DNA of 64,000 nucleotides from NCBI GenBank assembly GCA_023246095.1, contig JAHFJA010000002.1:39489-103488 (forward strand), in the 5' to 3' direction. A program made the translations under genes and the position numbers. The DNA comes from a bacterium (GTDB taxonomy: Bacteria; Patescibacteriota; Patescibacteriia; JACQRZ01). The notes under the pieces are model-generated. The model searched no databases and was not told the DNA's origin. It worked only from the letters and a program-made list of their open reading frames with translations. Shown one piece after another: positions 3,401 to 63,418 of the stretch (the stretch's first letter is position 1; each line of letters begins with the position of its first letter).

Positions 3401-4528
3401 TAAAATAGGTTCTTTGGGGACATTTTTGGCGTCAGTATCCCGTGTTTGTAGTTTTTCCTTTTCTAGTATTTCCGATACAGCCTTTTTTATACCCATAACC
3501 TCTGGAATTTGATCCAGTGCCGAAACATTATTTCGAGCGGCCTCAATCGCGCTTTTGAGATCTGAAGAACTTACATTATCGACATTTTTAATGTCTGTCC
3601 TTTCCATTTCGTCGATAATGTTCAAAAGGTCGCCAGTCGTTCTTGCACCATTAAACGCTTCTTCGAATAGTATCTTTTTCTCATCTTCCGTACCGTATTT
3701 TTTTATCAACTCACGATGAACAATGTAATCCTGAAACACACCTTTCTCTTTCCCCAACCATTTTTTAGTTCCTTCGCTTATTTGTACATTGTTGCGAATC
3801 CCTTTTTCGTTTCCTGTTGCAATAAAATCAAGATTCTCAACGATATTGGCTCGAAGATCTTTAGTTAGATCCTTAGTGTCAAGATAGTTGGGGATGTCAT
3901 ATTCATAACCCCCGACTTTTGCCTTCACACGGCACCTTATAACCACATCCTTTTTAATCTCACCTGCTTCGGCAGCTTGTTTAAGATTATCTACCACCTC
4001 CTGGTCAATCGCAAGCGAAAAACCGCCCCTTTTATTGAGCTCTTGGGTAAATTGATTAGATATATTTTCCGCTTCCCCTATTTCATTTTTAGAGTTCTTT
4101 TTGAGCGCTTCCGGTAGATTAAGTCCAAGACTGTCTGCATTTACGTCTACATCTTTCAATATCACGTTGCCGTCTTTTTCTATTTTTTTCTTTTTTGTCT
4201 TATGAAGATAGTAGTCACCACTTTTTTCATCTTGGTCAAACTTATACTTGAAGAAAGTGTTTTGTTCCTCTTGCTGTTCATTTTTTGGTGTGGCCTCCTT
4301 ATCTACCTTTTTAGACCGCTCAATACCAAGCTTTTCTGCAATACGATTCTTCATATCGTCATCCAATTCATCGCTATCTTCTACACTCATATCAAAAATA
4401 TACTTGTGCGGGTTCGCTTCTCCTGTAGGGGCTAAAGAAAGAGCGTCATTTACCTCTTGAACGCGCGTTTCAATCTCCGCTTCTCTCTCACGGGAAATTT
4501 GTTCTGGGGTTTTTGGTGCTTCTGACAT
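452..4528 (-). CDS. Giant (1358 aa) hypothetical protein: K/E-rich N-terminal ~700 aa that looks coiled-coil, two Gly/Ala-rich hydrophobic segments that look like transmembrane helices, and a ~300-aa C-terminal globular region; no P-loop found
   Basis: Uninterrupted ORF of 4.1 kb. Hydrophobic segments AGVGGIAGAAAGAAAGGWGSFAAY and GWGTAFALGAGAAAHYGVG. No GxxxxGK[ST] motif seen. Confidence 0.6.
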   Translation of the reverse strand: MSEAPKTPEQISREREAEIETRVQEVNDALSLAPTGEANPHKYIFDMSVEDSDELDDDMKNRIAEKLGIERSKKVDKEATPKNEQQEEQNTFFKYKFDQDEKSGDYYLHKTKKKKIEKDGNVILKDVDVNADSLGLNLPEALKKNSKNEIGEAENISNQFTQELNKRGGFSLAIDQEVVDNLKQAAEAGEIKKDVVIRCRVKAKVGGYEYDIPNYLDTKDLTKDLRANIVENLDFIATGNEKGIRNNVQISEGTKKWLGKEKGVFQDYIVHRELIKKYGTEDEKKILFEEAFNGARTTGDLLNIIDEMERTDIKNVDNVSSSDLKSAIEAARNNVSALDQIPEVMGIKKAVSEILEKEKLQTRDTDAKNVPKEPILDQGKDFIPGQGELMKNLLTLSKKAYQEAVAENKFFNVNDFLVANASYNSDIATEDFKNELTQQLKQEGIKDLVGGNVQAVLAEVLPSLRLLYEQSKRHPEAVAFDVDKYLDSFDSFQKLSNKEKTVFSQALTEARDGVGNQNNAILDVTGDPNKVIDIPKPEQVNTPEPEKGEPVWKKGDIIEFPTSRTPKMIYASFVIDSIDENGNVIVYSISKSGRRGTSPQPLSKSKMATDARRPQLVEPAKVEKTTSVVTAEPVKTGEPVVKSADVTPVDGSVVKQDATQELANTNNNEGTPPSTNPETPGGQPEGTGEVVGERTPESALKDAYFLAKNKYRDAQANFSKVKEQSDELQKAKRFLGLFDNAAKQTKRAEIEEELLKAQGIFEKAKTDFETQRAAYLSVELVNMMNEQSQEIDVRADKEGKWGRLAAGWKALGDMNLENYFKGKGSFQGEPKNKKEWALRFLARQASVRALLMAGVGGIAGAAAGAAAGGWGSFAAYRGLASWSTATLAGERAGGKKFESSSVVRLLGVDPFKETQLTKEMRDTIQGITDVGQAERCLSDMQAAMITQGFKTKETMALDMPPAYEEIFLRLLELKKESFVPQAEAPKAGDEVIQAPVETTPQIVLNEEESEGESAELDPRTQAILDYKKTLEESADKKLKEFKWDRLKAAGWGTAFALGAGAAAHYGVGKIADVAREAWVTDQPTAVLEKIGHTQAEYAKYAVNWQERLENIRGEINTKHTLASAKELSELRNIASWKGTELGTDAENVLKLIDRNPSILENSGIHELRVPHDLGELSLGEYIHKYAPKLVDDNKDLISKAETFFGTGAGELKIHGGDVLYFNVDHGAPTNMYFAGDSGHALGYQVDVQPDTLYAPIYENVISHHWGTSDKDGLYGLLRQKGSETLFHEYYGNKVGYLSGNMEKRLDDYIAALRHAKNPNDMSNPGVVFFKAFMENHSRELLSEEWAQKILAETQAVSK

Positions 4529-4707: not shown

Positions 4708-5826
4708 ATGGCTAAAGTTACAAAAAAAATCATTGAAACCTTTACAATTGAAGATTTACTTTTTGGGAATCCCTTTCCAAAACGTAAAGATTACAGAGAA
4801 GGATTCCAAAAAGAATCCGGAGAATACAAAATCCATCCAGTGGAGAGGTTCTTGCCAAATATCGGTGTCCCCTATCAATGTATCGTTAAGGTGGTCGAAT
4901 ATCCTAACGGTAAAAAGATTGGTCATGCTGAATTAGGGCCTGACGCAATTGTTAACAAGGATAACATTCGTGACAGTATTCCACCTGTAACCGTTACATT
5001 TGAGCAAGGAAAACACACACTGTTTGCGTATCACCCTGAAACAGGAAAGGCAATTACACCATTCCCTCGCTGGAAGTACTTTTTCAACTCCGAACCTAAA
5101 ATCGGTCAAACCTACACATTAGACTTGATAGATGAAGGGAACAAGTACTACGGAATTCCTACCATGGCAGGCATCCAGGTAAGTGCGACCGGAACAGCAC
5201 TTGCGATTAAGGCTGAGCTTAGTAGAAATTTAATGTTATATGACCTTGAACATGTTATAGATGCCGACGGAACATACCAACATTTTAAAAACATCCTACA
5301 TTTAGAGGATGACTTTACAGCCGAGATCGTTAAACAATCGTTCAATAAACTGTCGAAAAATTGTAACCCCAACAATTTGAAGACATCAGCCACCATGAGA
5401 GCTTTTATGGAAAGAAAAGCTCCCGTACTGCAACTGGCCAGAGCAATGGCTTACACACGTTTAGGTATTGAAAATGATGGCATAAACGTTCTTGTTTCCC
5501 ATTTTGGCAGCACAACTGAAATCATTCAGACGATTCTTAATGGCGAAATCCATAAAGAACCTGACAATACCGAAACAGAACAAACAACACCAGTCTTAAA
5601 AAAAAAGACCACCTTAAATGATAGGCAAGTCAAAGTCCAACAGATCGCTGATGAAATCCGCAAAAATGCAGCATCATTAAAGAACGTAGAAAATCCTTTA
5701 AAAACTGCTTTTGACACATGGATAGCTCAGTCTTCTGAAGATCATGACGCTTTTCTTTATAGACAAGTCGCTAAAGAATTAGGTGACGTCAAGTATTACG
5801 AACACAAAATACCCGTCATCGCCTAA
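4708..5826 (+). CDS. Hypothetical protein (372 aa), no recognisable motif
   Basis: ORF with strong Shine-Dalgarno (AAAGGAGG) and upstream consensus promoter. Confidence 0.6.
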   Translation: MAKVTKKIIETFTIEDLLFGNPFPKRKDYREGFQKESGEYKIHPVERFLPNIGVPYQCIVKVVEYPNGKKIGHAELGPDAIVNKDNIRDSIPPVTVTFEQGKHTLFAYHPETGKAITPFPRWKYFFNSEPKIGQTYTLDLIDEGNKYYGIPTMAGIQVSATGTALAIKAELSRNLMLYDLEHVIDADGTYQHFKNILHLEDDFTAEIVKQSFNKLSKNCNPNNLKTSATMRAFMERKAPVLQLARAMAYTRLGIENDGINVLVSHFGSTTEIIQTILNGEIHKEPDNTETEQTTPVLKKKTTLNDRQVKVQQIADEIRKNAASLKNVENPLKTAFDTWIAQSSEDHDAFLYRQVAKELGDVKYYEHKIPVIA

Positions 5827-5917
5827 ACGTCCCTATGGACGCTAATGTACATAATCTTACATTAACGTCCTGGGGATTGTTTTTTTACCAAAAAAATAGG
5901 GGTGTCCTTTGGATCCC

Positions 5918-8593
5918 CTATTCCTTCGCCTTCTCTATCGCATCCTTATGATGTCTATGATAAAAGTCTCGGAAAAACACCTCCGCCTCTTCACGAGAAT
6001 CATGATCTTTGGCAACCAATCCTTCCAGTCGGTGGCGTAATGCTACGCGCCCCGCCTCAGGAAGCAAATCGATCTTCTTTTCATAATAATTCAAAAATAT
6101 ATCAGTGAAATCTTTGATGTAATCCATGAACATTTCCTCGCCTCCATCATGGACCATTTTCCAGAGAACATACTCCGGAGTTCCTTCGACAAAGCCTTCA
6201 AACTCGTCAATTTCCAAAAATCCCGCTTCCTTTCCCGATGTATTGGCATACCATATCTGCCCGTTTGCATCCACATATACCCTATCGCCCGCATTGCCCA
6301 ACCGTAACCACTGACGGGGATTTTCAGGTACGACCGTAAAGCCCATCTGCTCATACACCTGACGGAGCGTCATATATACTTTCTGTTCCCCTTCTCCTTG
6401 ATCAGGGAACAGATCACCATGTGCCCAGACAATACGGCGCAATGCACCAAGCAACGTCTCTGCACGTTGAAGCTCAATATATACCATGCCCGCTTTTTCT
6501 ATTCCTCCCTTATCATGCCAGTAATTCCACATATGAAGCGCGCGTTCCCCCATTGCCGTTCCTTGCCAACGACTCAAGGCAAAGACGCGTGATAATTCAT
6601 GCAAGTTCTCGGGAGAAGGTTGATGACTTATATCCTCCAAAAACTTCATGCCGTCAAGTTTGACTGAGGCATATTCTTTCAATGTCTTTCCTTGGCGGAG
6701 CAAACTTTCCACCAGTGCAATGGACGCTTTCTCTCTTCCGAGGCCGTGTGCCACACTAATAGTTCCTTCAGGATTGGTTACCACGCTCACATATTTTTCA
6801 TACAGTTGGGTATACAAATCGCAATATGTCGTGTGATGGCGTTCCATCGAAAGTACCTCCCCTCTTAATCGGGCGTGAAACTCAAGCATGGTCACCATAT
6901 CGCGCATATGAGAAAGATCCACCATCTCATCAAGAGTACGGCGTTGAGAAAACGACATTTCCGGCACTCGACACGCTTCTATACCAAAACTTCCTCTCAA
7001 TCCCTCCCGCAACACACTCAAGTCAGCACTGGCAGCAGCAGCGATACGCACCGCCTGATTAGGATCCCTATCAGTCGCGACACCCAACGGCGCACCCAAC
7101 AATCCGGCAATCGTGGATCCTTCCAATGTAACCATATTCAACAACGTCCGAAATTCGAGTTGCATATCGAGGTTATCCGTCCCATGTCGCAACCATTCTT
7201 CGTATTTCTCATATCGTTCTTCCGAAATCAAATGCCCAATGCGTGTTTGTGAAAACATTGCCTGGCCTTGAAATACCCAAAATGAAAGCGACAAAAATTT
7301 CCGTTGAATCACCACATCGAGATGGATCGCTCCCAACATCGTAGCGATCTGACGTGTCACGACAAATACCGCGTACTCAAGACGTGCCTTATCGTATCGT
7401 TCTTTTGTTTCACGATATAGTTTTACCTGTTTGACGAAATCATCATGTTGGAACTCTTTACGAAATGATCCAAAAATACCTTCAAATGGTTTTAATACCT
7501 TGGCTGCGGCAACAAACGCTTTTTTTGCTTCAATATATTCCGAAGGAGTAGCGGAACGAGTAGCATCATCGATCACCATTGGCAACGCAGGGCGAGAAAC
7601 AACCGATATTCGTGGCCGTGTACGGGGTACTTTCACTACCTCCTGAGGTTTGACTTCGGCAACAGGAGGAAGGATAACAGGGGCAGGTGTCGCTTTTTCA
7701 ACTACTTCCAGTGTCACCGCCTCTAATACCGTTGGTTCGGGTTCTTTGACTGGCACTAATCCTTGTCCGCCTTCTATAGTCAATACGGGTGTATGAGGAA
7801 CTTCCAAAAGCAGTGGTTTCTCTTCCTCTTTGGGTGTTTCGACGGGGGCGGCAACAACAACAAGGGCAATCTCTGTTTCTGGTTCTGACGAGACAAGTAC
7901 CTCTTCGATGACCTTCTTCGCACCATTATGCCCATGCATCGCAACCTTTTGCGCCCTCGCTTCTTCTTTCTGTTCTTCATCACTGCCGAATTTCTTCACT
8001 AACTCATGGGATATGACATCATCAAGAAATTGATCTCTCACCACCTCTCTCCATTTTTTATATGCCTTATTGCTAAAATTCTGATGCGCTACGGCCATTT
8101 GGAAACTCTCTTTCTCCTCTGGACTTTCAAAGGCTTGAACCGACACGTCCACCCGGGAAGGATGAATATACAACTCAGTGGTAGGTGCTCCGTCAATCGA
8201 GTACGAAAAATACACATGATCGGGTGCTTCTTTTTGTAGGTGAAGCTTATAATTATCTCTCTGTCCCAAATCATGTCGAATGCGCTCTGCATATCCTAAT
8301 ACCTCGTCACGAAAATCAGCATCAGAAAATTTTTCCTCCAACGAAGCGGGGATTTTTATATGTGTCTCTGTCGTCTGAGCGGTATGTTCCAAACCACGCT
8401 GTTCTTCGAAATCTTGAAATATACAAAACGCGTTGGCGTCTTTATTCAAGGAATAGCCTAGAAAATGTTTTGTCGTTATAACACTGCCGGAAGCCATTTG
8501 TGGAGCAACGCCTGTCTTTGAAGGGCGGCCACGGCGGCGTTTGAGAGCAATGTCACTTCCGATAGGGGCGGAAAGTGTTGATGTTGATGGCAT
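5918..8593 (-). CDS. Hypothetical 891-aa protein with N-terminal AT-hook-like RRRGRPSK motif, a central Pro/Glu/Val-rich linker and a large C-terminal region
   Basis: Long ORF; AT-hook GRP core read from the translation; no catalytic motif recognised. Confidence 0.55.
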   Translation of the reverse strand: MPSTSTLSAPIGSDIALKRRRGRPSKTGVAPQMASGSVITTKHFLGYSLNKDANAFCIFQDFEEQRGLEHTAQTTETHIKIPASLEEKFSDADFRDEVLGYAERIRHDLGQRDNYKLHLQKEAPDHVYFSYSIDGAPTTELYIHPSRVDVSVQAFESPEEKESFQMAVAHQNFSNKAYKKWREVVRDQFLDDVISHELVKKFGSDEEQKEEARAQKVAMHGHNGAKKVIEEVLVSSEPETEIALVVVAAPVETPKEEEKPLLLEVPHTPVLTIEGGQGLVPVKEPEPTVLEAVTLEVVEKATPAPVILPPVAEVKPQEVVKVPRTRPRISVVSRPALPMVIDDATRSATPSEYIEAKKAFVAAAKVLKPFEGIFGSFRKEFQHDDFVKQVKLYRETKERYDKARLEYAVFVVTRQIATMLGAIHLDVVIQRKFLSLSFWVFQGQAMFSQTRIGHLISEERYEKYEEWLRHGTDNLDMQLEFRTLLNMVTLEGSTIAGLLGAPLGVATDRDPNQAVRIAAAASADLSVLREGLRGSFGIEACRVPEMSFSQRRTLDEMVDLSHMRDMVTMLEFHARLRGEVLSMERHHTTYCDLYTQLYEKYVSVVTNPEGTISVAHGLGREKASIALVESLLRQGKTLKEYASVKLDGMKFLEDISHQPSPENLHELSRVFALSRWQGTAMGERALHMWNYWHDKGGIEKAGMVYIELQRAETLLGALRRIVWAHGDLFPDQGEGEQKVYMTLRQVYEQMGFTVVPENPRQWLRLGNAGDRVYVDANGQIWYANTSGKEAGFLEIDEFEGFVEGTPEYVLWKMVHDGGEEMFMDYIKDFTDIFLNYYEKKIDLLPEAGRVALRHRLEGLVAKDHDSREEAEVFFRDFYHRHHKDAIEKAKE

Positions 8594-16067: not shown

Positions 16068-16601
16068 CTACTTTCCTTTGATACTTAACAACTCAACCTC
16101 AAAGAAGAGATCGGAACCAGCGGGAATACTGCCTCTCTCGACCATGCCGTATGCCATTCGTGCAGGAATAGACAATGAACGCTTTCCGCCCACCTTCATA
16201 CCTTCAAACCCTTTGTCCCACCCTTCGATCACCATACCGGCACCAAGCTGGAATTCAAACGGTTGTTTACGCACATATGAACTATCAAATACAACACCGT
16301 TAGCAAGTTTTCCACTGTAGTGGACTGTCAATATATCTCCCTTTACCGCTGTAGCTCCCGTACCCACGACCGTATCATTGATCTCAAGATCCGTAAGTGG
16401 TTTTTTAACTGTTGCCTCAGAAGAAACTACTGATTCAGGAGTTGTGTTCATATTTTCATTAGGGTTTTGAGAATTAGGATTGGGGGTAGTAATGATATTT
16501 GATTGAGTGTCTGGTTTCTTTGGAGAAGACGTATACACAAACACGATTGCACCCACCACAACAACAATCGCAAGAACGGGAATTAAGATTTTTTTATTCA
16601 T
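16068..16601 (-). CDS. FKBP-type peptidyl-prolyl cis-trans isomerase with N-terminal membrane anchor or signal
   Basis: FKBP domain signature VHYSGKLANGVVFDSS...GWDKGFEGMKVGGKR...LFFEVELL. Confidence 0.85.
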   Translation of the reverse strand: MNKKILIPVLAIVVVVGAIVFVYTSSPKKPDTQSNIITTPNPNSQNPNENMNTTPESVVSSEATVKKPLTDLEINDTVVGTGATAVKGDILTVHYSGKLANGVVFDSSYVRKQPFEFQLGAGMVIEGWDKGFEGMKVGGKRSLSIPARMAYGMVERGSIPAGSDLFFEVELLSIKGK

Positions 16602-16647
16602 AAAAATATGTATTAATTACAGTATGAAACTAGTATATCAGATTCTT

Positions 16648-17706
16648 CTAACATCCCCAACTATTTGCTTTCAACTTATTATAATTCCCTTCAACCCGAG
16701 GGGCATAAACCCGAGTTTCCTTATACCCGGTGTTAACCTCGCATTCCCACAACGTCGTCCCAGAACAAGACGAACTGAGTCTATTTGCACCTGGCCCGCC
16801 ATTATATGCTGCTGCTAAATACTTAATCTGTGTCATATCACATCCAGATTGTGAATTAGTCGACCCACCATTGCAACCACCCGTTTTCAAGTCGCTCAAG
16901 TAAGCAGCAGCAGTGCGTGCATTGGTAAGTGGGTCAAAACTACTGCCCCCCGTAATATTATGACGGGACCTCACATCCGCCGCAGTGGCGGGCATAAGTT
17001 GAATAAGCCCCTGTGCCCCAACGGAACTTTGCGCGTTGGGGTTACCGCTTGACTCTGCAAACATAAATGCCTTTAAGAGTGTGCAATCAACACCCGGAAA
17101 TTCCGTGCTTGCACTTTTTAAGGCCGTATCGTATGTTGTGAGATTTTGAGATATACTCGCACTACCAACACCTTTCTCACCCCCACCACTACTTTGTTGC
17201 TGACGAATTTCCGCCACAGTAATGTCCATCTTTTGTATTGCCCCCAAACGTATCACTGGCCATTGAACCAGAACCGGATTGATAAGGTACAAGATAGAAT
17301 AAGCACCGAGAGTAAGAACGAGACCAATCAATGCATTCGATATAATTTTTATTGCTTTTTGTGTTTGCCCCGAAGAGCCTCTTGAAGTCATCCACTGCAT
17401 CCCTCCTACCATTAGCATTACCACGGCGATTATAGCCACCGCAGTAATTAACCACGCGTACAATTGTCCAAAATAGGTGGCCATACCTGTTGCCACAATA
17501 GTATTACCATCAGCAGTGATAAGTTTAACCTTTTCATCATACCCGTGAAAAGGAACTTGAAGTTTAAAATCGGGAAACAAACTCGAAGATTTTATAGCAT
17601 CATCAACAGCAAATACGCGATGAGGTGTAGCAATCCCCACAAAAAACAATATAACGATAGCCAACACCCCCACAAGGAAATATCTTACAAAAGACGAATG
17701 ACGCAT
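16648..17706 (-). CDS. Fusion protein: N-terminal TrbC/VirB2-like pilin module joined to a C-terminal SLT-family lytic transglycosylase domain
   Basis: Pilin-type motif MLMVGGMQWMTSRGSSGQTQKAIKIISNALIGLVLTLGAYSIL; SLT motif AESSGNPNAQSSVGAQGLIQLMPATA. Confidence 0.7.
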   Translation of the reverse strand: MRHSSFVRYFLVGVLAIVILFFVGIATPHRVFAVDDAIKSSSLFPDFKLQVPFHGYDEKVKLITADGNTIVATGMATYFGQLYAWLITAVAIIAVVMLMVGGMQWMTSRGSSGQTQKAIKIISNALIGLVLTLGAYSILYLINPVLVQWPVIRLGAIQKMDITVAEIRQQQSSGGGEKGVGSASISQNLTTYDTALKSASTEFPGVDCTLLKAFMFAESSGNPNAQSSVGAQGLIQLMPATAADVRSRHNITGGSSFDPLTNARTAAAYLSDLKTGGCNGGSTNSQSGCDMTQIKYLAAAYNGGPGANRLSSSCSGTTLWECEVNTGYKETRVYAPRVEGNYNKLKANSWGC

Positions 17707-17749
17707 AATATATAAAGTTATCTATAATCAGTATACCATCTTAACAAAA

Positions 17750-17780
17750 CAAAAAAGTAGCACGTGGCTACTTTTTTGTA
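17750..17780. terminator. Palindromic hairpin aaaaaagtagc-acgtg-gctactttttt, probable terminator of the minus-strand tRNA pair
   Basis: 11-bp perfect stem with flanking A/T tracts. Confidence 0.4.
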
Positions 17781-17815
17781 GAATATAATATAAAATTTTG
17801 ATAATACAACATTTT

Positions 17816-17891
17816 TGGTGCGCCCAGAGGGATTTGAACCCCCGACCGTTTGCTTAAGAGGCAACTGCTCTACCAACTGAGCTATGAGCGC
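17816..17891 (-). tRNA. tRNA-Lys (anticodon CTT), CCA encoded
   Basis: Manual cloverleaf fold of the reverse complement: GCGCTCA acceptor, GCTC/GAGC D-stem, anticodon loop CTCTTAA, T-loop TTCAAAT, 76 nt. Confidence 0.8.
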
Positions 17892-17951: not shown

Positions 17952-18028
17952 TGGTGCGCCCGGAGGGATTCGAACCCCCGACCCTCTGGTCCGAAGCCAG
18001 ATGCTCTAATCCACTGAGCTACGAGCGC
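17952..18028 (-). tRNA. tRNA-Arg (anticodon TCG), CCA encoded
   Basis: Manual cloverleaf fold: acceptor GCGCTCG/CGGGCGC, anticodon stem TCTGG/CCAGA with loop CTTCGGA, T-loop TTCGAAT, 77 nt. Confidence 0.75.
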
Positions 18029-18086: not shown

Positions 18087-19154
18087 CTATTCTTGAACCT
18101 CGTCTTGTTCTACATGCTTCAATGTTTCTGGGTGCACCATATATGATAAAGCTTCATCATGGCTAATCAATCCTTTTTTATATAAATCTTTCACACTGGT
18201 ATCCATAGTACACATCCCTTTTCCTGCATTTGTTTGTAACACTGTTTCAATCTGCTGCAACTTATTTTCCCGGATTAATGTCGCAACAGCAGGTGTATTA
18301 AGAAGCACTTCACGCACCGCAATACGCTGTTCGTTTTGCGTAACTACTAATCTTTGAGAAACAACTCCTTTAAGTGTCGTTGCAAGCTGCAAGCGAATCT
18401 GTGTTTGTTGGGAAGGAGGAAAAACATCAACAATACGGCTGATAGTTTCGGCGGCACTAAACGTGTGCAAGGTTGCAAACACCAAATGACCCGTTTCTGC
18501 CAATGTGATCGTTGCTGCAATAGTTTCTAAGTCTCGCATTTCCCCGACCATAATAACATTAGGATCTTGGCGTAAAACATACTTCAAACTTTCACTGAAC
18601 GATCGCATATCTTGTCCCAACTGTCGCTGCCGGATAATAGACTTATTGGGAGTAAAAAGAAACTCAATCGGATCTTCAAGAGTTATGATGTTTTCTCCGC
18701 GATTATTATTGATCGCATCAATCATGGAGGCAAGAGTAGTTGATTTACCACACCCTGCCGGACCCGTAATCAAGACAAGACCATTTTTCATGTTGATGAA
18801 ATTTTGTGCCGCCTCAGGAATATGCAAATCATCCATCGTGGGAATATCTACAGGTATAAGACGCGCCACAAGACCAACACTATTTTTTTCCCACATGAGG
18901 TTAATACGAAAACGCCCTACCCCTTCAATCTCGTGTGAAACGTCCAGCTCTTTTCCGTCATCAAAAAACTCTCTCTGCATTGGTGTCAGAACACTATACG
19001 CAAGATCTTGTACCGAACCTGGGGTCAGCACGTCTTGTTCTTCGATTTCTCGCAGACGCCCACCTGCACGAATAATAGGCCGCTTCCCCACATAGAGATG
19101 CAGATCAGAAGCGGCATGTTGTTGTGCGTAGGTAAGTAATTGATTGAGCGTCAT
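18087..19154 (-). CDS. pilT: PilT-family type IV pilus retraction ATPase (likely start at MTLNQLL; ORF extends to 19208)
   Basis: Walker A LITGPAGCGKSTTLASMIDAIN and the N-terminal AASDLHL motif; ~355 aa. Confidence 0.8.
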   Translation of the reverse strand: MTLNQLLTYAQQHAASDLHLYVGKRPIIRAGGRLREIEEQDVLTPGSVQDLAYSVLTPMQREFFDDGKELDVSHEIEGVGRFRINLMWEKNSVGLVARLIPVDIPTMDDLHIPEAAQNFINMKNGLVLITGPAGCGKSTTLASMIDAINNNRGENIITLEDPIEFLFTPNKSIIRQRQLGQDMRSFSESLKYVLRQDPNVIMVGEMRDLETIAATITLAETGHLVFATLHTFSAAETISRIVDVFPPSQQTQIRLQLATTLKGVVSQRLVVTQNEQRIAVREVLLNTPAVATLIRENKLQQIETVLQTNAGKGMCTMDTSVKDLYKKGLISHDEALSYMVHPETLKHVEQDEVQE

Positions 19155-19223
19155 AGACTTGAGTATAATTGGTAGTGATAGCCTGACACGAGGGAAAACG
19201 GTTGTCAATCCGACTACTCGTAC

Positions 19224-56327: not shown

Positions 56328-57038
56328 TCATCTCAAAACCGATTGATAGTTCTTAAGCAAAAATACTGTTTCGGTTTTGAGATGCGTCTTGACCCACGCT
56401 TTATTTTTTTCATTCAAAAGCTCACCTAATCCTTGCAATATCTGTGCATCTTTCACTTGTTCGACAAGAGAAATACAGTCATCGATGTACTCTTTCAGGC
56501 TTTTTGTCGTCCACTTCGCCAACACCTCTCTGTCAATATCCCAGTTATTTTTTGCAAAGTACCACACATCGTAGATATCACGCATTGCGGTTTCGCTTCG
56601 CAAGGTCAACGCAGCAAGCTTGCTTGCGAATAGATATGGCCTTTTGGCAACGAACATTGAAATCCCCAAATACTCTTTTAGTTCATATTCCTCCTTGAGG
56701 TCAGGCACCACCCTTCTTGTACTTATCTCAATTTTAATATTGTGGTCAGTATCCCCGTAAGAAAGAAGACAAAAGATAGTATTCATTTTTATGTAACTGT
56801 CTTTGATAATGCCATATCGCTCTAAAATCGTTTTAATCCTCTCGAAGATTAATGTATAAGTATCTTGATCGCCACCAATCACATCAAAATCCAAATCAAC
56901 TGAAAATCGTGGCAACTCGTAAAAAAAATATGCACACGTACCCCCTTTAAAACCCAAAAATGGCGCAATTGACACATCAGCATATATGTCTCGCAAAATC
57001 CGTCCCATTATGAGTTGGTGTTTTTCTCTATTCAGCAT
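56328..57038 (-). CDS. abiEii: AbiEii/AbiGii-family nucleotidyltransferase toxin (DUF1814)
   Basis: GFKGGTCAYFFY...RFSVDLDFD motif (GG...S.DLDF of the AbiEii NTase). Confidence 0.75.
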   Translation of the reverse strand: MLNREKHQLIMGRILRDIYADVSIAPFLGFKGGTCAYFFYELPRFSVDLDFDVIGGDQDTYTLIFERIKTILERYGIIKDSYIKMNTIFCLLSYGDTDHNIKIEISTRRVVPDLKEEYELKEYLGISMFVAKRPYLFASKLAALTLRSETAMRDIYDVWYFAKNNWDIDREVLAKWTTKSLKEYIDDCISLVEQVKDAQILQGLGELLNEKNKAWVKTHLKTETVFLLKNYQSVLR

Positions 57039-57811: not shown

Positions 57812-58294
57812 CTATACGTTAAAATGATCCAGATATCCTTTTATGTTTAGGGTCGTTTCGTCAAGTATTATGTTTTCAACAAGGACTTTGAAGACCCACT
57901 GAGTAATCCCCCACGCCGAGAGGATGACGGCCAAACCGAGAAGTGCGTATTTAAGGATGTGTTGTGCTTTTTCTACATTGTCTTTTTCTCCATGCGCGGT
58001 CATCCAAAGAAAGCCTGCATAGAGGATAAGGGAGACGGAGAGAATAGCAAGAAAACCAAGAATGTATTTAAGTACATTTGCTATCAGTGTAATTGGTTCA
58101 AGCTTATTCTGTGGTAAGGTGGTACCTTTAGTGCCCGTAGTATTCTTGAACTCACCTCCTGTGAGTATATCGGACAGAGACACCGCATACGAGGAAATAG
58201 GCATTACGGTCACGACCATACTACCCAAAGTAAAGGTCAGCATACCAATGGCAATAAACGTGCGTGCTTTTTGTATTGATGAAAATATATTCAT
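57812..58294 (-). CDS. TrbC/VirB2-like (T4SS-type) pilin paralog 1
   Basis: N-terminal signal/TM; C-terminal motif LYAGFLWMTAHGEKDNVEKAQHILKYALLGLAVILSAWGI. Confidence 0.7.
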   Translation of the reverse strand: MNIFSSIQKARTFIAIGMLTFTLGSMVVTVMPISSYAVSLSDILTGGEFKNTTGTKGTTLPQNKLEPITLIANVLKYILGFLAILSVSLILYAGFLWMTAHGEKDNVEKAQHILKYALLGLAVILSAWGITQWVFKVLVENIILDETTLNIKGYLDHFNV

Positions 58295-58296
58295 AT

Positions 58297-58779
58297 CTAG
58301 GTACCCGTAACGGCTTTAGCGATTGTTAAAAGAACCCAGTAGGTCAGTCCCTGTGCCGCAATGATAATTACTAAACCAACGACTGCCGTCTGGAGGAGAT
58401 CTTGTGCTTTTTTTACCTTCTCTTTTTCACCCTGTGCCGTCATCCAGAGATATCCTGCATAAAGAGTGAGAATGAGAAATATTATGCCAAGAAACCCAAG
58501 AAATATTTGAATAACACTCCCAATAATCATACCTATTGAGTTGGTAGGTGCACCCGACGTAGCTCCACAGGTCTTCCCCCATGCACCACCCGCCGTTTGG
58601 AGATAATCTAATATTCCTTTGTCAGCACAATCAGAGGTGGTAACAGCAAATCCATTAATACCCGCAAGAGCGAGGGTGAATACCATCGCACTCATGCCAA
58701 TATATCGAACCGCATGACTCATGCGCTCCGCGACGGACTTGGCTAAAATAGTATTTTCTTTTGTTACCTTCTTTTTCAT
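58297..58779 (-). CDS. TrbC/VirB2-like pilin paralog 2
   Basis: Motif LYAGYLWMTAQGEKEKVKKAQDLLQTAVVGLVIIIAAQGL. Confidence 0.7.
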   Translation of the reverse strand: MKKKVTKENTILAKSVAERMSHAVRYIGMSAMVFTLALAGINGFAVTTSDCADKGILDYLQTAGGAWGKTCGATSGAPTNSIGMIIGSVIQIFLGFLGIIFLILTLYAGYLWMTAQGEKEKVKKAQDLLQTAVVGLVIIIAAQGLTYWVLLTIAKAVTGT

Positions 58780-58812
58780 ATCGAAGATATCGCAGATGCC
58801 TTTCGGGTATTA

Positions 58813-59232
58813 TTACTTCACTCCCGTGATGGGTTTAAGGCTTTCCACCACGAAATAGGCAATGGCGTAGGAGGACAAAACGATGATAAGCCCAATCACT
58901 GCCGTCGTGATCATTCCGCGCGCTTTTTCTACCTTTGTCTTATCCCCTTCTGCGGTCATCCACTTGGTGCCGGCATAGAGTAAGATAATCAACAGCACGA
59001 TACCCATTATACCGAGAATCACTTTTATCACTGCGCCAATAATAAGCGGGACTGAGTCGGCGGTTGCCGTCACTTTTGCTGCTGTTTTAGCTTGGTCAAA
59101 TACAGAATTAATGTCATTCTTTGCTGCTATCTGAGTACGGGGAATATTGGTTGTCAGTGTTGTCGTCGCAAACGCACCACTTCCTGCCAACATACTTACC
59201 GAAACAATAATTGCAAAAAAAATCTTTTTCAT
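58813..59232 (-). CDS. TrbC/VirB2-like pilin paralog 3 (start at MKKIFFAII; ORF extends to 59388)
   Basis: Motif LYAGTKWMTAEGDKTKVEKARGMITTAVIGLIIVLSSYAI. Confidence 0.7.
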   Translation of the reverse strand: MKKIFFAIIVSVSMLAGSGAFATTTLTTNIPRTQIAAKNDINSVFDQAKTAAKVTATADSVPLIIGAVIKVILGIMGIVLLIILLYAGTKWMTAEGDKTKVEKARGMITTAVIGLIIVLSSYAIAYFVVESLKPITGVK

Positions 59233-59234
59233 AC

Positions 59235-59672
59235 CTAGTGAGCAGCGGTTATTGGCCCTACTAGTCGAGATAAGACGAAAGCAGTGATCGCGTAAGCAGA
59301 CAGCACAATGATAAGACCCAGTACCGCATGAAATATAAGACCGCGTGCTTTTCCTACCTTTGTCGTATCCCCTTCCGCCACCATCCATAGGATACCGCCA
59401 TACACGACAAGGATCAGAAATACCAAACCAAGAACAGATAAAATGATCTGGATGGAAACACCGATTATTGCGGGAAGTGTTTGTTCATCAAGATTATTAA
59501 AGCCAAAAAAACCTTTGAACCCTTCCGCGCTTTTATTCAAACTATCTAGCGGTGGGGTTGAAAGAGGAACAGCAAATACAGGGATTGGAATCCCTGGCGC
59601 AAAAACAAGAACGCCTGCTATCAGAGTTGATAGCAGGGCGCCGATGCCGACTTTGAAGAAAGTCTTGTTCAT
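59235..59672 (-). CDS. TrbC/VirB2-like pilin paralog 4
   Basis: Motif VYGGILWMVAEGDTTKVGKARGLIFHAVLGLIIVLSAYAI. Confidence 0.7.
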   Translation of the reverse strand: MNKTFFKVGIGALLSTLIAGVLVFAPGIPIPVFAVPLSTPPLDSLNKSAEGFKGFFGFNNLDEQTLPAIIGVSIQIILSVLGLVFLILVVYGGILWMVAEGDTTKVGKARGLIFHAVLGLIIVLSAYAITAFVLSRLVGPITAAH

Positions 59673-59696
59673 GGGAGTAAAATCTATGTGCGCAGC

Positions 59697-60113
59697 TTAT
59701 TTAATGATAGTCGCAGGAACACTAAACGCGTATTGTGCAATGCCCCATGCAGAGAGAATAATAACAAGCCCAATAACTCCCTGTATCAACATTTTTTGTG
59801 CGGATTCAACTTGTTCATCTTTACCTCCTGCGGTCATCCATTTGAAACCTGCAATCAAAATGATAATCACGGCGATAATACCGAGAAACCCAAGAACAAA
59901 ATTAATAACCGATACCACTGTCTCGTAGGGGGCAATAGCTGTCGAATCATGACCTGGCAATGGTGCATTTTTTGAATCGTTTAATCCATATCCAGTCGTT
60001 GGGACAACCGGCGCCGCCGCATTCACCATCGACACAGGCAAAAGTCCAAAACCTACCGTCAATACACTCGCGACAAGGAACGTTCGTACTACGTTTTTGA
60101 GAGTTGTTTTCAT
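59697..60113 (-). CDS. TrbC/VirB2-like pilin paralog 5
   Basis: Motif LIAGFKWMTAGGKDEQVESAQKMLIQGVIGLVIILSAWGI. Confidence 0.7.
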   Translation of the reverse strand: MKTTLKNVVRTFLVASVLTVGFGLLPVSMVNAAAPVVPTTGYGLNDSKNAPLPGHDSTAIAPYETVVSVINFVLGFLGIIAVIIILIAGFKWMTAGGKDEQVESAQKMLIQGVIGLVIILSAWGIAQYAFSVPATIIK

Positions 60114-60214
60114 ACAACGTACAAGGAAATTAAAAATAAATTCTTATTAAGTACTTATAGTATAGCAGACTGTTTTAAGAGCGGAAGTGAATTACTTTTT
60201 ACTACTTCATCTAA

Positions 60215-60991
60215 TCATAGTGGTGCCTGCGTAATGAACTCACGAAATAGTTCAACTTTCCGAACATCACTCGCATCGAACAAAAAAGGTTGTATGTCTC
60301 GTCCTAGTTCTTTAAAATCCAGTCCAGCCGTTGATTCCAACATTCTCGCGCGGAGCCCTTCCGGATCCCCTACCCCAATCTTTGCCTGAAGATACTCATA
60401 GTTCGGTTTGGTAAACGAGGAAAGGAAGACAATGTCATAAAAATCACGACCTTTCGCGCGCTTGCGATTTATCGCCGCAAACATCTTCTGAGAAAGTAAT
60501 ATGTCAGGAGGGGTAACGAAAATCTCCGAAAATACGTCAAACTTGTTAAGAATTTTCTTGTCTGGTTGATAAGAGACGCCATGAGCCAGACTGTCAACTT
60601 GTATGAGAATCTTTTCTTCCTGATATGGTGACAGTTCATTCACAAATAGTATATCAGGCAACCGCACTCGACACCGATAGGCGTCTTTACCAACAGTATC
60701 GATTTCAACGCGCAAACCTTGCCGCTCCAGTTCAACTTGGATGATGTGCGCAAGCTCTTCAAACTCGCCGTCTTCCAGATTGAAATTATCAAAGTCTAAA
60801 TCTTCCGAAAATCGGGTATTCCCATATATAATTCGTAACGCAGTACCACCCAAGAACGCCAGTTTAGCGGCATGCGGGGAAGCAAAAATAATTTCAAGGA
60901 TCTTATACTGAAGGTACTCTCGAAGAATACCCCGTTTGAATGGACGTAACGACTCCGGATATTGTTGTTCGATTTGCTGCAAGGTCAACAT
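60215..60991 (-). CDS. abiEii: AbiEii/AbiGii-family nucleotidyltransferase toxin (DUF1814)
   Basis: Canonical FLGGTALRIIYGNTRFSEDLDFD motif. Confidence 0.85.
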   Translation of the reverse strand: MLTLQQIEQQYPESLRPFKRGILREYLQYKILEIIFASPHAAKLAFLGGTALRIIYGNTRFSEDLDFDNFNLEDGEFEELAHIIQVELERQGLRVEIDTVGKDAYRCRVRLPDILFVNELSPYQEEKILIQVDSLAHGVSYQPDKKILNKFDVFSEIFVTPPDILLSQKMFAAINRKRAKGRDFYDIVFLSSFTKPNYEYLQAKIGVGDPEGLRARMLESTAGLDFKELGRDIQPFLFDASDVRKVELFREFITQAPL

Positions 60992-60992
60992 A

Positions 60993-61613
60993 TCATTTTG
61001 ATTGTTTAATCAACGAGATAAGATCTTCTGTTCTCCTTAGAAACCCCCTACTTGTATACACCATGGCATATTTCCGAAATTTTTTTATGTCGGCTTTTTC
61101 TAAAAACTCTTCACTATTGAACCTCCATTCGTAAAAATCTTCAGGCTTAATAATATTTGGGTGGAGATATACATAATCGAGCACTGCTTTTTCAATCTCC
61201 GCAATTTTGTACGTATATCCATTCTTTGTTTCCAGTCGATACCCAAAAAAATACTCCGCTTTAATTTGTTGGTATGAAAATTCCGTAACCGGTGACTTAA
61301 AACTGGCCGTCTTCTTACTGGACGCCGAGGTAATCGAATATACCCCCTCCGGAATCAAACCATAATACGACAACGCCATTTCAAAAGATACGTACGATGG
61401 CGGGTATAACCGATTTGCAATCAAAAACAATACCTCTTCGCTCAAAGGAAGATCGGCAAACATGTAATAACCACGACGCAGCTTCTTGATATATCCCTTA
61501 TTTTGCCACTCATTAAGCTGATGACGATAAAAAGTTGGATCGATCTTGCGAATATCCACCAAGGAAAAAACAGCAAAGTCTTTCAACTCTCCTTGTAATT
61601 GTTGGTACTTCAT
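60993..61613 (-). CDS. abiEi: AbiEi-family antitoxin (start at MKYQQLQ; ORF extends to 61679)
   Basis: KKLRRGYYMF and PSYVSFEMALSYYGLIP motifs; 1-nt gap to the downstream toxin. Confidence 0.7.
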   Translation of the reverse strand: MKYQQLQGELKDFAVFSLVDIRKIDPTFYRHQLNEWQNKGYIKKLRRGYYMFADLPLSEEVLFLIANRLYPPSYVSFEMALSYYGLIPEGVYSITSASSKKTASFKSPVTEFSYQQIKAEYFFGYRLETKNGYTYKIAEIEKAVLDYVYLHPNIIKPEDFYEWRFNSEEFLEKADIKKFRKYAMVYTSRGFLRRTEDLISLIKQSK

Positions 61614-61711
61614 AGATTTCCGAAACGTACTATATTTAGTACTCTTTGGAATTATAACAACAGAGAAAGAATCGCGCAAACGATATCATGTCTACACATC
61701 GGTGTGTTACT

Positions 61712-62068
61712 TTATTTCCCCAACAAAGCAGTGAGGAGGAATCTGACGATTGCGGCGCTGGCGAAGATGACCGCCATACCGATTGCGGCCCATATCATGG
61801 TATCCATGCCTTTTGTTACTTTTCCTTTATCCCCTGCCGAGGTCATCCAGAGAATACCGCCATAAACAAAGACCACCAGTGCGATTGAGCCGGACAGGCC
61901 GAGAAATGCATTGATAACCAAGCCAATAAATTCCGCGGGGCTATTCACTGCGAGAGGGTTTTCAAGAGTCACGTTACCAGCAGCGGCGTATGCGAAGTGA
62001 GTGGTAAGGAGGGTGATGCCGGCTATCGCTGTTGATAGGGTGACGGTACTATTTTTGGGGAGGGGCAT
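61712..62068 (-). CDS. TrbC/VirB2-like pilin paralog 6 (short, 118 aa)
   Basis: Motif VYGGILWMTSAGDKGKVTKGMDTMIWAAIGMAVIFASAAI. Confidence 0.7.
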   Translation of the reverse strand: MPLPKNSTVTLSTAIAGITLLTTHFAYAAAGNVTLENPLAVNSPAEFIGLVINAFLGLSGSIALVVFVYGGILWMTSAGDKGKVTKGMDTMIWAAIGMAVIFASAAIVRFLLTALLGK

Positions 62069-62086
62069 ATTTCTTGCTAATTCGAT

Positions 62087-63418
62087 TTAATAGATTATTG
62101 CGTTGGGACAGTCTACTTTCCATCTTTCATCCATGCCAATAAATTCTGTGGTTCCACAGGATGTCGCATTAGGACAGTAGAACTTATTATGAATTGTTAC
62201 GTCCAAAAACGCCTTATTTTGACAGTCAGTAGATGAGATAGACTCGCTGGTATGAAATGCAGTCCCTGATCCATTGGTATTATACGATACACAGCATACC
62301 CCATTTGAAATAACTACAGGAGCGCCACATTTCCCTGCGGTACACTGTCCTGTCTTACATTGTGCAGGGTCTGTACATGCTTCATTATCGTTCTTTTTTA
62401 ACTCACAAGTACCATTCGCAGGGTCGTTTGGGTTAGTACAGTACTGAGTCCCCGCACATTGCGCTTGCATTGGTGGAACCTCACATTTTTGACCCGTTAA
62501 TTTTATCGGCAACACACAGCAACACTTGTTTCCTGTAATAAGATATGACGATACAAACACTCGATTCTTGTTTGTCTGATTACTCGCGACCGCGTCACAA
62601 ACAGCGCTTCCAAAACCACAATCACTGTTAGCTATAAAATGATCCGTACTAGTACAAGACTCATCTTTACAATGATAGCAATACGGTGCTGCGCCCACCC
62701 CTGTACTAAACTCAAATTTTCCCGCACCACACATTTGCAATGCTTTGGCCGAGGCCTCGGCGTACGTTACATAACAGCCACCCTGACTTTGCGCTTGAGT
62801 TTGAGCTAGTTGTATCTCCGGCACCACCCCAATCGTTCCAAAGTGTATCGGCGTACAAATATCTGCTTGATATGACCATTTGCTAGTACCATTAAAAATT
62901 CCTCCCAGACGACCTGCAAGTGTCTTGTCGCCCGTTTCTTTTTTAATCAAACTAGTCATAACAAAGTTTACCGCCATCCAGCTGGTAAACACAATCACGA
63001 GCCCAATCGCGGCGTTGACCATCGTCTCTGTCCCTTTTGTCACTTTCCCTTTATCCCCCGCCGAAGTTAAATACTGAAAGCCCCCCAACACCACCATCAA
63101 AAGCGCGACACTGCCGCTTATGCCCAGAATAAACGTTGCGATATTGATAGCAAGCTGAATAAACGCATCCAAGGTATAATTACAACACAACATATCGCAC
63201 ATCGGGATGATCTTGCTTATAAGCTCACCTGATTGCGGTGCACACATTGCCGGTCCCCCTGCACATCCCCCAGGAACAAACGACGCTGTTGATTTACCCG
63301 CCAATGTCGAATCTGCCCACACCAGCGTAGCAGTAGCGCCGATGCTGGCGATAACCATAACGCCAAAAAGAAATGACAGTATGGCGAGGCGGTATTTTTT
63401 TGGATGACGAAGTTTCAT
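62087..63418 (-). CDS. TrbC/VirB2-like pilin module fused to a ~300-aa Cys-rich C-terminal ectodomain
   Basis: Motif LGGFQYLTSAGDKGKVTKGTETMVNAAIGLVIVFTSWMAV, followed by a domain with >35 Cys (CCCVLP, CTAGKCG, CCVSY and others). Confidence 0.65.
   Translation of the reverse strand: MKLRHPKKYRLAILSFLFGVMVIASIGATATLVWADSTLAGKSTASFVPGGCAGGPAMCAPQSGELISKIIPMCDMLCCNYTLDAFIQLAINIATFILGISGSVALLMVVLGGFQYLTSAGDKGKVTKGTETMVNAAIGLVIVFTSWMAVNFVMTSLIKKETGDKTLAGRLGGIFNGTSKWSYQADICTPIHFGTIGVVPEIQLAQTQAQSQGGCYVTYAEASAKALQMCGAGKFEFSTGVGAAPYCYHCKDESCTSTDHFIANSDCGFGSAVCDAVASNQTNKNRVFVSSYLITGNKCCCVLPIKLTGQKCEVPPMQAQCAGTQYCTNPNDPANGTCELKKNDNEACTDPAQCKTGQCTAGKCGAPVVISNGVCCVSYNTNGSGTAFHTSESISSTDCQNKAFLDVTIHNKFYCPNATSCGTTEFIGMDERWKVDCPNAIIY

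Follow-up and report, generated by a model that had tools for sequence, protein, structure and literature searches.

Results

A pilin-like hairpin and a lytic transglycosylase in one polypeptide

We analysed a 64-kb stretch of a Patescibacteria chromosome (GCA_023246095.1, contig JAHFJA010000002.1, positions 39,489 to 103,488), called the window below, and in it a gene on the reverse strand whose single uninterrupted open reading frame (ORF) encodes a protein of 352 amino acids (aa), the pilin-SLT protein. The window is otherwise an ordinary Patescibacteria chromosome, with genes for ribosomal proteins, rpoBC, recA, ftsK, IF-2 and RNase Y, together with an array of pilin-like genes. A first-pass annotation, made from the letters of the sequence, had noticed in this ORF an N-terminal transmembrane (TM) segment, a pilin module and an SLT motif; ORF and gene calls, Pfam, hydropathy and an AlphaFold2 (AF2) model all confirmed this description. 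The same product was obtained from separate gene calls in the ENA assembly and in the Logan assembly, and an identical protein is also recorded from NCBI. The AF2 model, computed with 20 homologues, reached a mean pLDDT (predicted local distance difference test) of 77, and its layout agreed with the hydropathy profile, in which segments stood out at residues 9-27, 82-100 and 121-139. The likely signal peptide cleavage site, read directly from the sequence, lies between VFA and VDD. The 352-aa protein is a genuine covalent fusion of two modules, a VirB2-like hairpin and an SLT lytic transglycosylase (Table 1).

The enzyme module was matched by the Pfam SLT profile (PF01464) over residues 204-309 with E=3.8e-19 and 68.8 bits against a cut-off of 21.3. 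The motifs E218-S219, G233-L234-I-Q236 and Y301-N302-G303-G304 are all present, and E-S, GLxQ and YNGG were invariant in 20/20 homologues. These catalytic motifs align to the catalytic region of MltC and MltE, and a PDB sequence search with the SLT domain matched MltC, MltE and Slt70. The model was most confident here (pLDDT >90 over residues 185-352), and Foldseek gave a probability of 1.0 to Slt70 (1qte), P. aeruginosa Slt (5ohu), MltC (4c5f) and MltE (4hjy). Neither of the objections foreseen in the first-pass annotation, a failing SLT profile or a missing catalytic glutamate, applies: the score is well above threshold and Glu218 is in place. Assignment to a more narrowly defined family was rejected, as the NCBIfam equivalogs BB0259, MltC, EmtA, MltF and Slt70 all scored far below their cut-offs; the best of them, BB0259, matched over the catalytic region only, with 51 bits against 234. 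By every sequence and fold criterion, the module is an intact family-1 lytic transglycosylase. Six cysteines of the SLT domain (208, 278, 289, 314, 322 and 352) were conserved in 16-20/20 homologues, and DsbA genes lie directly upstream of the homologue at three loci (L004, L017 and L018; loci of relatives are labelled L003-L088 and representative proteins P0024 and so on). We argue from the six cysteines and these DsbA genes that the SLT domain is probably extracytoplasmic. Topology prediction likewise put it outside the cell, and the predicted C-out orientation together with the six cysteines gives the protein one feature of VirB1-type enzymes, a peptidoglycan hydrolase domain beyond the cytoplasmic membrane.

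The first-pass annotation had also described the membrane module as the same as that of a pilin array about 40 kb away. The array is real and comprises seven ORFs with PF18895. A hidden Markov model (HMM) built from these seven ORFs, at 57.8-63.4 kb of the window, scored the pilin-SLT protein at 43.6 bits (E=1.7e-15, residues 64-148, with a bias term of 11), while pairwise BLASTP identities to the seven ranged from 25 to 39%. The hairpin is thus a homologue of the array pilins, if no particularly near one: the HMM score argues for homology, the identities against calling the modules the same. In the AF2 model the hairpin helices span residues 74-107 and 112-142, with pLDDT of 72-86. The loop between them, TSRGSSGQTQKAIK, contains three lysines or arginines and no acidic residue (+3), and the segment before TM1 is net acidic. 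The positive-inside rule and the example of VirB2 both predict a cytoplasmic loop, with the two protein ends outside. In the homologue alignment G102 and G128 are invariant and K119 and N143-P144 are also conserved, all of them non-hydrophobic positions.

As expected of this pilin type, the signal peptide is followed by two hydrophobic helices with a short basic loop between them. The size is not that of such a pilin: instead of a small protein of ~100-190 aa ending soon after the second helix, we found 352 aa with 205 residues beyond TM2. The protein belongs to PF18895 by hairpin profile and architecture and fails as a small free pilin. It shares with the array pilins the signal peptide, a variable segment, the hairpin and the signature GG...W.T..G...K...GL. 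Free pilins, however, have 118-190 aa and end 10-20 residues past TM2, whereas the window protein runs 200 aa further and has long fusions as its nearest relatives; its LQIPIPG-like and INPxLV..P.LRLG motifs were not evident by eye in the array pilins.

The hairpin is a carrier for many wall hydrolases

A search of 5.8 billion proteins yielded 46 relatives, among them about 25 clusters combining PF18895 with PF01464; all named ones came from Patescibacteria metagenome-assembled genomes (MAGs). Scanning the species genomes of GTDB added 14 loci of full length; the MAGs concerned bear the labels Falkowbacteria, Paceibacterota, Saccharibacteria and Giovannonibacteria. The N-terminal 175 residues, which we call the carrier, were then used for a full HMMER scan, which matched 13,789 cluster representatives, with E<=1e-10 for 1,132. 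Only four of the best 150 carrier relatives were shorter than 200 aa; the rest had 250-890 aa, with the module near the N-terminus. Pfam found T4SS_pilin in 111 of the best 122 and a recognisable peptidoglycan hydrolase domain in about 40 of these 122. The fused domains were SLT (10 proteins), Peptidase_C39_2 (8), NlpC/P60 (6), C70 (6), VanY (5), M15_4 (4), Amidase_2 (3), M23 (2), 3D (2), CHAP (1) and SLT_3 (1), counts that are not additive since some matches overlap on one protein. The hairpin is hence joined to at least eight kinds of wall hydrolase.

When the pilin-SLT protein was aligned with carriers bearing 3D, VanY-like, Amidase_2, NlpC/P60 or M15 domains, similarity was high up to residue 165-170 and absent beyond. 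The similar stretch includes extracellular motifs on either side of the hairpin, and the D-F-K-L-Q-V-P-F motif of its N-terminal part (consensus LQIPIPG in relatives) is kept in carriers whose catalytic domains differ. The carrier forms a distinct and very large subfamily of PF18895. Its members nearly always make up the N-terminal part of a longer protein, whose C-terminal domain, wherever recognisable, is some peptidoglycan hydrolase. The first-pass annotation had called a pilin-SLT fusion unusual, a view that does not survive the dozens of Patescibacteria clusters and the range of hydrolases on the carrier; the pilin-SLT protein is a representative of a widespread modular class and not a unique oddity.

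Some relatives (P0106, P0078, P0110 and P0168) contained 4-6 separate carrier-hairpin matches per polypeptide, that is, pilin-like hairpins in tandem. At many loci a second long carrier protein (246-427 aa), with a C-terminal domain that has no Pfam match, is encoded directly upstream of the pilin-SLT gene (Table 1), the two genes making up a cassette that recurs among the homologues.

The catalytic domain differs between close relatives at the same locus

The two closest matches to the carrier half were the proteins P0024 and P0027, whose genes occupy the equivalent place in the chromosomes of two relatives, L086 (GCA_964357385.1) and L088 (GCA_030688365.1). In L086 the gene order is Polysacc_synt - SpoIID - PilT - tRNA-Arg - tRNA-Lys - 1.1-kb insert - carrier gene - FKBP - HU - YmdB - RNase Y, and in L088 it is HIT - carrier gene - FKBP - HU - YmdB - RNase Y - ClpP - RbfA - IF-2. 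The order SpoIID - PilT - tRNAs - carrier - FKBP - HU - YmdB - RNase Y is a conserved locus of this lineage and is not a T4SS (type IV secretion system) locus. Between the window and L086 the neighbouring proteins were 74-95% identical and the carrier halves 62.5% identical, and for the C-terminal half of the 352-aa protein tblastn found no match in L086 or L088. At the DNA level, blastn of the window against L086 showed homology over 17576-17213 (66%), none over 17212-16603, and homology again, at 80%, from 16602, the start codon of the FKBP gene. The boundary with the syntenic 3D-domain orthologues falls at about residue 165-170, in the linker, with a DNA breakpoint at ~17213.

Because the carrier of these close relatives, at this very position, is joined to a 3D domain in place of SLT, the catalytic cassette was replaced in situ, an MltA-like 3D domain by SLT. 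The simplest history is that SLT replaced 3D in the lineage of the window, since 3D is present in both relatives, also in the more distant of the two. With other pilin-SLT proteins the window protein shares 50-56% identity in the SLT domain but only 30-44% in the carrier; as its SLT domain is closer than its carrier to the pilin-SLT proteins of other lineages, the 352-aa protein is a mosaic. Both the 3D/MltA fold and the SLT fold, as in MltA and Slt70, belong to lytic transglycosylases, and the swap looks like-for-like in activity, on a conserved carrier. This exchange had been missed in the first-pass annotation.

Base composition was considered as a sign of recent transfer of the SLT cassette and rejected, the difference being too small (GC 47.7% in the C-terminal against 41.4% in the N-terminal part; GC3 39.9% against 36.5%). 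In L086 the 1.1-kb insert between tRNA-Lys and the carrier gene (5745-6837, facing 17707-17815 of the window) holds a Ser_hydrolase-like gene and an 85-aa ORF; the window lacks it. Like the cassette, the tRNA-adjacent stretch thus differs from one relative to another.

Homologous genes lie downstream of virB4 in several other lineages

Two homologue loci supplied VirB4, TraC-like and PrgI proteins, with which we searched within a range of 10 kb; 13 loci were informative. At 7/13 (L004/L015, L005, L007, L009, L012, L014 and L016) virB4 precedes the pilin-SLT gene by 1-6 kb on the same strand, and PrgI and TraC-like genes accompany virB4 there. A place in a T4SS cluster near virB4, another feature of VirB1-type enzymes, is thus found for the homologues at seven loci and not in the window. 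At L005 the T4SS cluster is ~3 kb from rnpA-dnaA, in agreement with the T4SS near the origin that Quinonero-Coronel et al. describe (PMC12102498). At L014 a pilin-VanY carrier protein (819 aa) is encoded between virB4 and the pilin-SLT gene. A neighbour-joining tree without support values, to be taken as a rough hint only, placed the window protein on a long branch near a virB4-linked clade. A metagenome scan with the family alignment returned, among the matches listed, only SLT-only proteins of unrelated bacteria, and the count of virB4-linked loci was unchanged.

Published work on the Patescibacteria T4SS offers analogous evidence. In Southlakia epibionticum, genes for a lysozyme-like/CHAP-like protein and an M15 peptidase lie just downstream of virB4 and both are essential (PMC10633639, supplementary tables); these hydrolases belong to other domain families than SLT, and the likeness is one of analogy only. 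The same supplementary tables list no PF01464 protein and seven PF18895 entries, at least four of them in the SEML1_0014-0019 array (PMC10633639). The T4SS and the pilin array are essential to epibiotic growth, and relaxase and coupling proteins are lacking (PMC10633639; PMC12102498). In a survey of 3,035 genomes most were without a recognisable VirB1, and the putative pilus may need none (PMC12102498).

Neighbouring genes and the rest of the window

The tRNA genes and the PilT-like gene next to the pilin-SLT gene are present as the first-pass annotation had listed them (Table 1), and no meaning could be demonstrated for this adjacency. As a functional clue it was rejected: a terminator-like hairpin with a 13-bp stem intervenes, the upstream gene in L088 is HIT, and PilT, SpoIID and FKBP were absent from the vicinity of the homologues at 17 loci of other lineages. 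The FKBP gene follows the carrier gene by 46-78 bp in 3/3 related genomes (window, L086 and L088); it may be co-transcribed with it, and its product is possibly a dedicated extracytoplasmic foldase.

Table 1. Features of the pilin-SLT gene, its surroundings and related loci. Positions refer to the window except in the last five rows, which give positions in the locus named.
Feature	Position	Strand	Basis or remark
Pilin-SLT gene (352 aa)	16648-17706	-	uninterrupted ORF
Signal peptide (Sec-type) or N-terminal TM helix, residues 1-33	17608..17706	-	hydropathy, AF2 helix 4-26; Arg2, Arg8, hydrophobic core 9-27
Extracytoplasmic N-terminal carrier segment, residues 34-73 (predicted)	17488..17607	-	D-F-K-L-Q-V-P-F motif, small predicted beta-hairpin, net charge -2; AF2 confidence low
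VirB2-like helix-loop-helix hairpin (PF18895), residues 74-147	17266..17487	-	Pfam, array HMM, AF2; TM1 ~82-105, TM2 ~118-142, then INPxLV motif
Flexible Gln/Gly/Ser-rich linker, residues 148-184	17155..17265	-	AF2 pLDDT <50 for 150-180
Family-1 lytic transglycosylase (SLT, goose-lysozyme-like) domain, residues 185-352	16651..17154	-	Pfam, PDB sequence matches, AF2, Foldseek
GAG codon of Glu218, predicted catalytic acid/base (E-S motif)	17053..17055	-	invariant 20/20; aligns with ES of MltC and MltE
Replaced cassette: 3' part of the gene (from ~codon 166) and 46-bp spacer	16603..17212	-	without DNA or protein similarity to the syntenic L086 region
Membrane-anchored FKBP-type peptidyl-prolyl isomerase gene, 46 bp downstream	16068..16601	-	Pfam FKBP_C on record
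Intrinsic-terminator-like hairpin (13-bp stem and T-run) between tRNA-Lys and the pilin-SLT start	17749..17779	-	consensus match only
tRNA-Lys(CTT)	17816-17891	-	ARAGORN; syntenic with L086; neighbour, not part of the functional unit
tRNA-Arg(TCG)	17952-18028	-	ARAGORN; syntenic with L086; neighbour, not part of the functional unit
PilT-like T2SSE ATPase gene	18087-19208		upstream of the tRNAs and the pilin-SLT gene
Array of seven PF18895 pilin-like genes, ~40 kb off, interrupted by an AbiEi/AbiEii pair	57812..63418	-	putative partner pilins
Second upstream carrier gene, L003	9048-9986		
Second upstream carrier gene, L006	771-1703		
Second upstream carrier gene, L010	9182-9922		
Second upstream carrier gene, L004	6690-7973		
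Second upstream carrier gene, L016	7203-8252		

The first gene of the pilin array (62087-63418, reverse strand) encodes 443 aa, in which a signal peptide precedes a strong PF18895 hairpin (42.9 bits, residues 89-153). The protein continues into a Cys-rich C-terminal extension of ~290 aa without a Pfam match, which makes it the second protein of the window to consist of a pilin plus an extension. A 191-aa ORF of the array (58813-59388, reverse strand) overlaps the next pilin gene; the ENA call starts internally and yields a 139-aa pilin, so that the long N-terminal extension is probably untranslated. Two AbiEi-like/AbiEii (PF08843) toxin-antitoxin pairs lie at 56328-57642 and 60215-61679, one flanking the run of pilin genes and the other interrupting it; such modules could stabilise the region or mark recombination. 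Another toxin-antitoxin pair, of the nucleotidyltransferase/HepT-like type (PF01909/PF01934), is found at ~51.5-52.3 kb, between the isoleucyl-tRNA synthetase gene and that of a large surface protein. Three large predicted proteins have no Pfam match on record, all encoded on the reverse strand: 865 aa at 53618-56215, 1,358 aa at 452-4528 and 891 aa at 5918-8593. In the 865-aa protein a hydrophobic segment lies at the N-terminus, and the repetitive, Gly/Thr-rich sequence resembles that of a surface fibre.

Discussion

The 352-aa protein is very probably an active, membrane-tethered lytic transglycosylase; whether it also takes part in a T4SS or in pilus assembly is an even call. As a whole, we lean towards a pilin-anchored, membrane-tethered wall hydrolase that works in the manner of VirB1. 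The protein would be exported by Sec, after which its signal peptide would probably be cleaved. The two hydrophobic helices would then sit in the membrane, their short basic loop facing the cytoplasm and the two protein ends the exterior, and the disordered linker of ~35 residues would let the disulfide-stabilised SLT domain reach the peptidoglycan. There, as the intact family-1 motifs and the fold suggest, Glu218 would cleave the bonds between N-acetylmuramic acid (MurNAc) and N-acetylglucosamine (MurNAc-GlcNAc) to leave 1,6-anhydroMurNAc. The hairpin would place this activity in the membrane patch of the VirB2-like pilins and the T4SS, and the wall would be opened locally. The most likely role would be that of a Patescibacteria equivalent of VirB1, PrgK or TraG, because the pilin-SLT gene lies just downstream of virB4 in several lineages; we describe the protein as working like such an equivalent and do not file it as one, because in the window the gene is outside any T4SS cluster. 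The first-pass annotation had proposed a wall-piercing component of pilus assembly. A wall-opening role for a T4SS or pilus is indeed reasonable, since the same fusion is encoded directly downstream of virB4 in other Patescibacteria, but the tie to the pilin array of the source genome is one that we infer, in a window without T4SS machinery.

Several observations weigh against a VirB1-like hydrolase on a pilin anchor. Genes for VirB4, VirB6, VirB3/PrgI and a coupling protein are all absent from the 64-kb window, and no virB4 lies within 10 kb at 6/13 informative loci (L003, L010, L017, L018, L019 and the window). The gene has housekeeping surroundings, beside a wall enzyme with a SpoIID domain, which fits general wall remodelling equally well. 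On the side of the anchor, the PF18895 match (residues 77-140) passes marginally, with 27.5 bits against a cut-off of 26.6, and the name pilin for this family is itself a prediction, as no pilus has been seen in the Patescibacteria T4SS (PMC12857230). On the side of the swap, the C-termini of P0024 and P0027 pass the Pfam 3D threshold of 23.8 bits with partial matches (26.5 and 24.8 bits), and their similarity to the catalytic stretch of MltA, DVGxAIKGxHFD(I/L)Y, is a short alignment with E=0.3. An AF2 model of P0024 from a two-sequence alignment had a mean pLDDT of 37 and was unusable, so that the 3D assignment comes from Pfam and the MltA motif. Activity, topology and interaction of the 352-aa protein are all predictions from sequence and models.

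The strongest competing explanation is that the protein is a housekeeping autolysin with which a small monoderm cell enlarges or turns over its wall or divides, its hairpin being a mere two-helix anchor of pilin ancestry without any link to a T4SS or pilus. The absence of T4SS genes from the window and of virB4 from the surroundings of almost half of the informative loci speaks for it, as do the conserved housekeeping neighbours (SpoIID, FKBP, HU, YmdB, RNase Y, ClpP and IF-2) in three related genomes. Other wall hydrolases are few in reduced genomes, and an exchange of 3D for SLT, both glycan-strand cleavers, suggests selection for just that activity. A simple anchor, however, would not readily account for the extracellular motifs, N-terminal and after TM2, that are kept at 55-67% identity across unrelated catalytic domains and imply a specific partner. 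The anchor is specifically of the T4SS pilin fold and family, and seven independent loci put the gene in the virB4 operon. Moreover, divergence is faster in the carrier (62% identity) than in the neighbouring proteins (84-95%), which is typical of surface or interaction proteins and not of core housekeeping enzymes. We therefore regard an autolysin as rather unlikely, though deserving of serious consideration.

The same fast divergence would suit a more daring explanation, in which the carrier is pulled out of the membrane as a pilin is and becomes a minor or tip subunit of a T4SS filament, its interchangeable hydrolases being warheads with which the epibiont breaches the wall of the bacterium it lives on, much as in polymorphic toxins. 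A very similar N-terminus, a sharp boundary and unrelated swapped hydrolases, including a swap in situ between close relatives, are compatible with such a system, as are the at least eight hydrolase families on one carrier. In the work of Costa et al. of 2016, both pilin termini reportedly face outwards in solved conjugative pili. The T4SS and array are essential for epibiotic growth and come without relaxase or coupling proteins, which suggests a non-conjugative role (PMC10633639; PMC12102498). Yet polymerisation into a T4SS pilus has been shown for no PF18895 protein (PMC12857230), there is no evidence of delivery, and a filament could hardly accommodate a globular domain of 200 aa on its pilin subunits unless the stoichiometry were low. 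There is no immunity-like gene next to the carrier gene, which is followed by that of an FKBP foldase; the place downstream of virB4 is that of classical VirB1-type enzymes acting on the cell's own wall, and the hydrolase types are ordinary autolysin types. These points make a host-directed effector improbable. Least of all do we believe in an artefact, be it misassembly, a frameshift or a chance hydrophobic match, even if PF18895 is barely over threshold and hydrophobic helices can yield spurious HMM scores, as the bias term of the array HMM recalls. The ORF is uninterrupted and its product identical in the ENA, NCBI and Logan assemblies, the architecture is repeated in dozens of independent MAGs, the conserved hairpin positions include non-hydrophobic ones, and the carrier DNA, at 66% identity, is too divergent for a chimeric assembly.

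By function and position, the closest systems to the VirB1-like hydrolase that we favour are the membrane-anchored VirB1-like hydrolases of Gram-positive bacteria, with only the kind of anchor being new (PMC12857230). PrgK (pCF10), TraG (pIP501), Orf14 (Tn916) and CwlT (ICEBs1) are membrane-anchored extracytoplasmic hydrolases, some with SLT, encoded near virB4 in monoderm T4SS clusters of the MPF-FATA type (PMC12857230; PMC12102498). The first-pass annotation had set the fusion against a VirB1 that is a separate protein, a contrast that loses its force once PrgK, TraG and Orf14 are seen to be membrane-anchored already (PMC12857230). Homologues of the window protein fill the same slot downstream of virB4 as this group, whereas the window gene lies outside a T4SS cluster. 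Members of the group have a single N-terminal TM helix and usually two or three domains (SLT or MUR with CHAP or LytM); the window protein instead combines a signal peptide with a two-helix hairpin of the VirB2 type, which bears conserved extracellular motifs, and has one exchangeable catalytic domain. VirB1 of Gram-negative T4SS and the specialised transglycosylases of type III secretion systems and flagella (IpgF, EtgA and Borrelia BB0259) are family-1 SLT enzymes like it, and their task is to make a local gap for an envelope-spanning machine. These proteins differ in being soluble in the periplasm or otherwise anchored, without a pilin-like module, and the window protein falls outside their equivalog families. 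MltE (EmtA), MltC and Slt70 of E. coli are its best matches of solved structure, by sequence and fold, with shared catalytic motifs at ~22-25% identity; they are, in contrast, outer-membrane lipoproteins or soluble periplasmic proteins of a diderm and lack the six-Cys pattern and the hairpin anchor. Polymorphic toxins and effectors join a conserved N-terminal trafficking module to a variable C-terminal enzyme, and the T4SS of Xanthomonas delivers peptidoglycan hydrolase effectors. The carrier family resembles them, by analogy only, in its one carrier, its many exchangeable wall-degrading C-termini and its sharp recombination boundary; it differs in that the carrier gene comes without an immunity gene, without a known secretion signal of those systems and without evidence of delivery to another cell.

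In the literature on Patescibacteria T4SS pilins, VirB2 and lytic transglycosylases we found no description of a pilin-hydrolase fusion, though domain databases record the architecture; a 2025 survey may have counted such fusions as VirB1 and/or VirB2 homologues and left the fusion unremarked. A class of more than 1,000 clusters, often near virB4 and with at least eight enzyme families, is a concrete candidate for the missing VirB1 function. It suggests a targeting principle in which the pilin fold places the enzyme where the pilins are. The clean replacement of 3D by SLT in situ between close relatives shows carrier and enzyme to be separable modules, giving natural chimeras. Were the carrier a minor pilin after all, this swap would be one step in an arms-race-like diversification of warheads, in a polymorphic effector system built on a pilus subunit. 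In the sole genetically tractable Patescibacterium, the T4SS and pilin array at which such enzymes may act are essential for epibiotic life.

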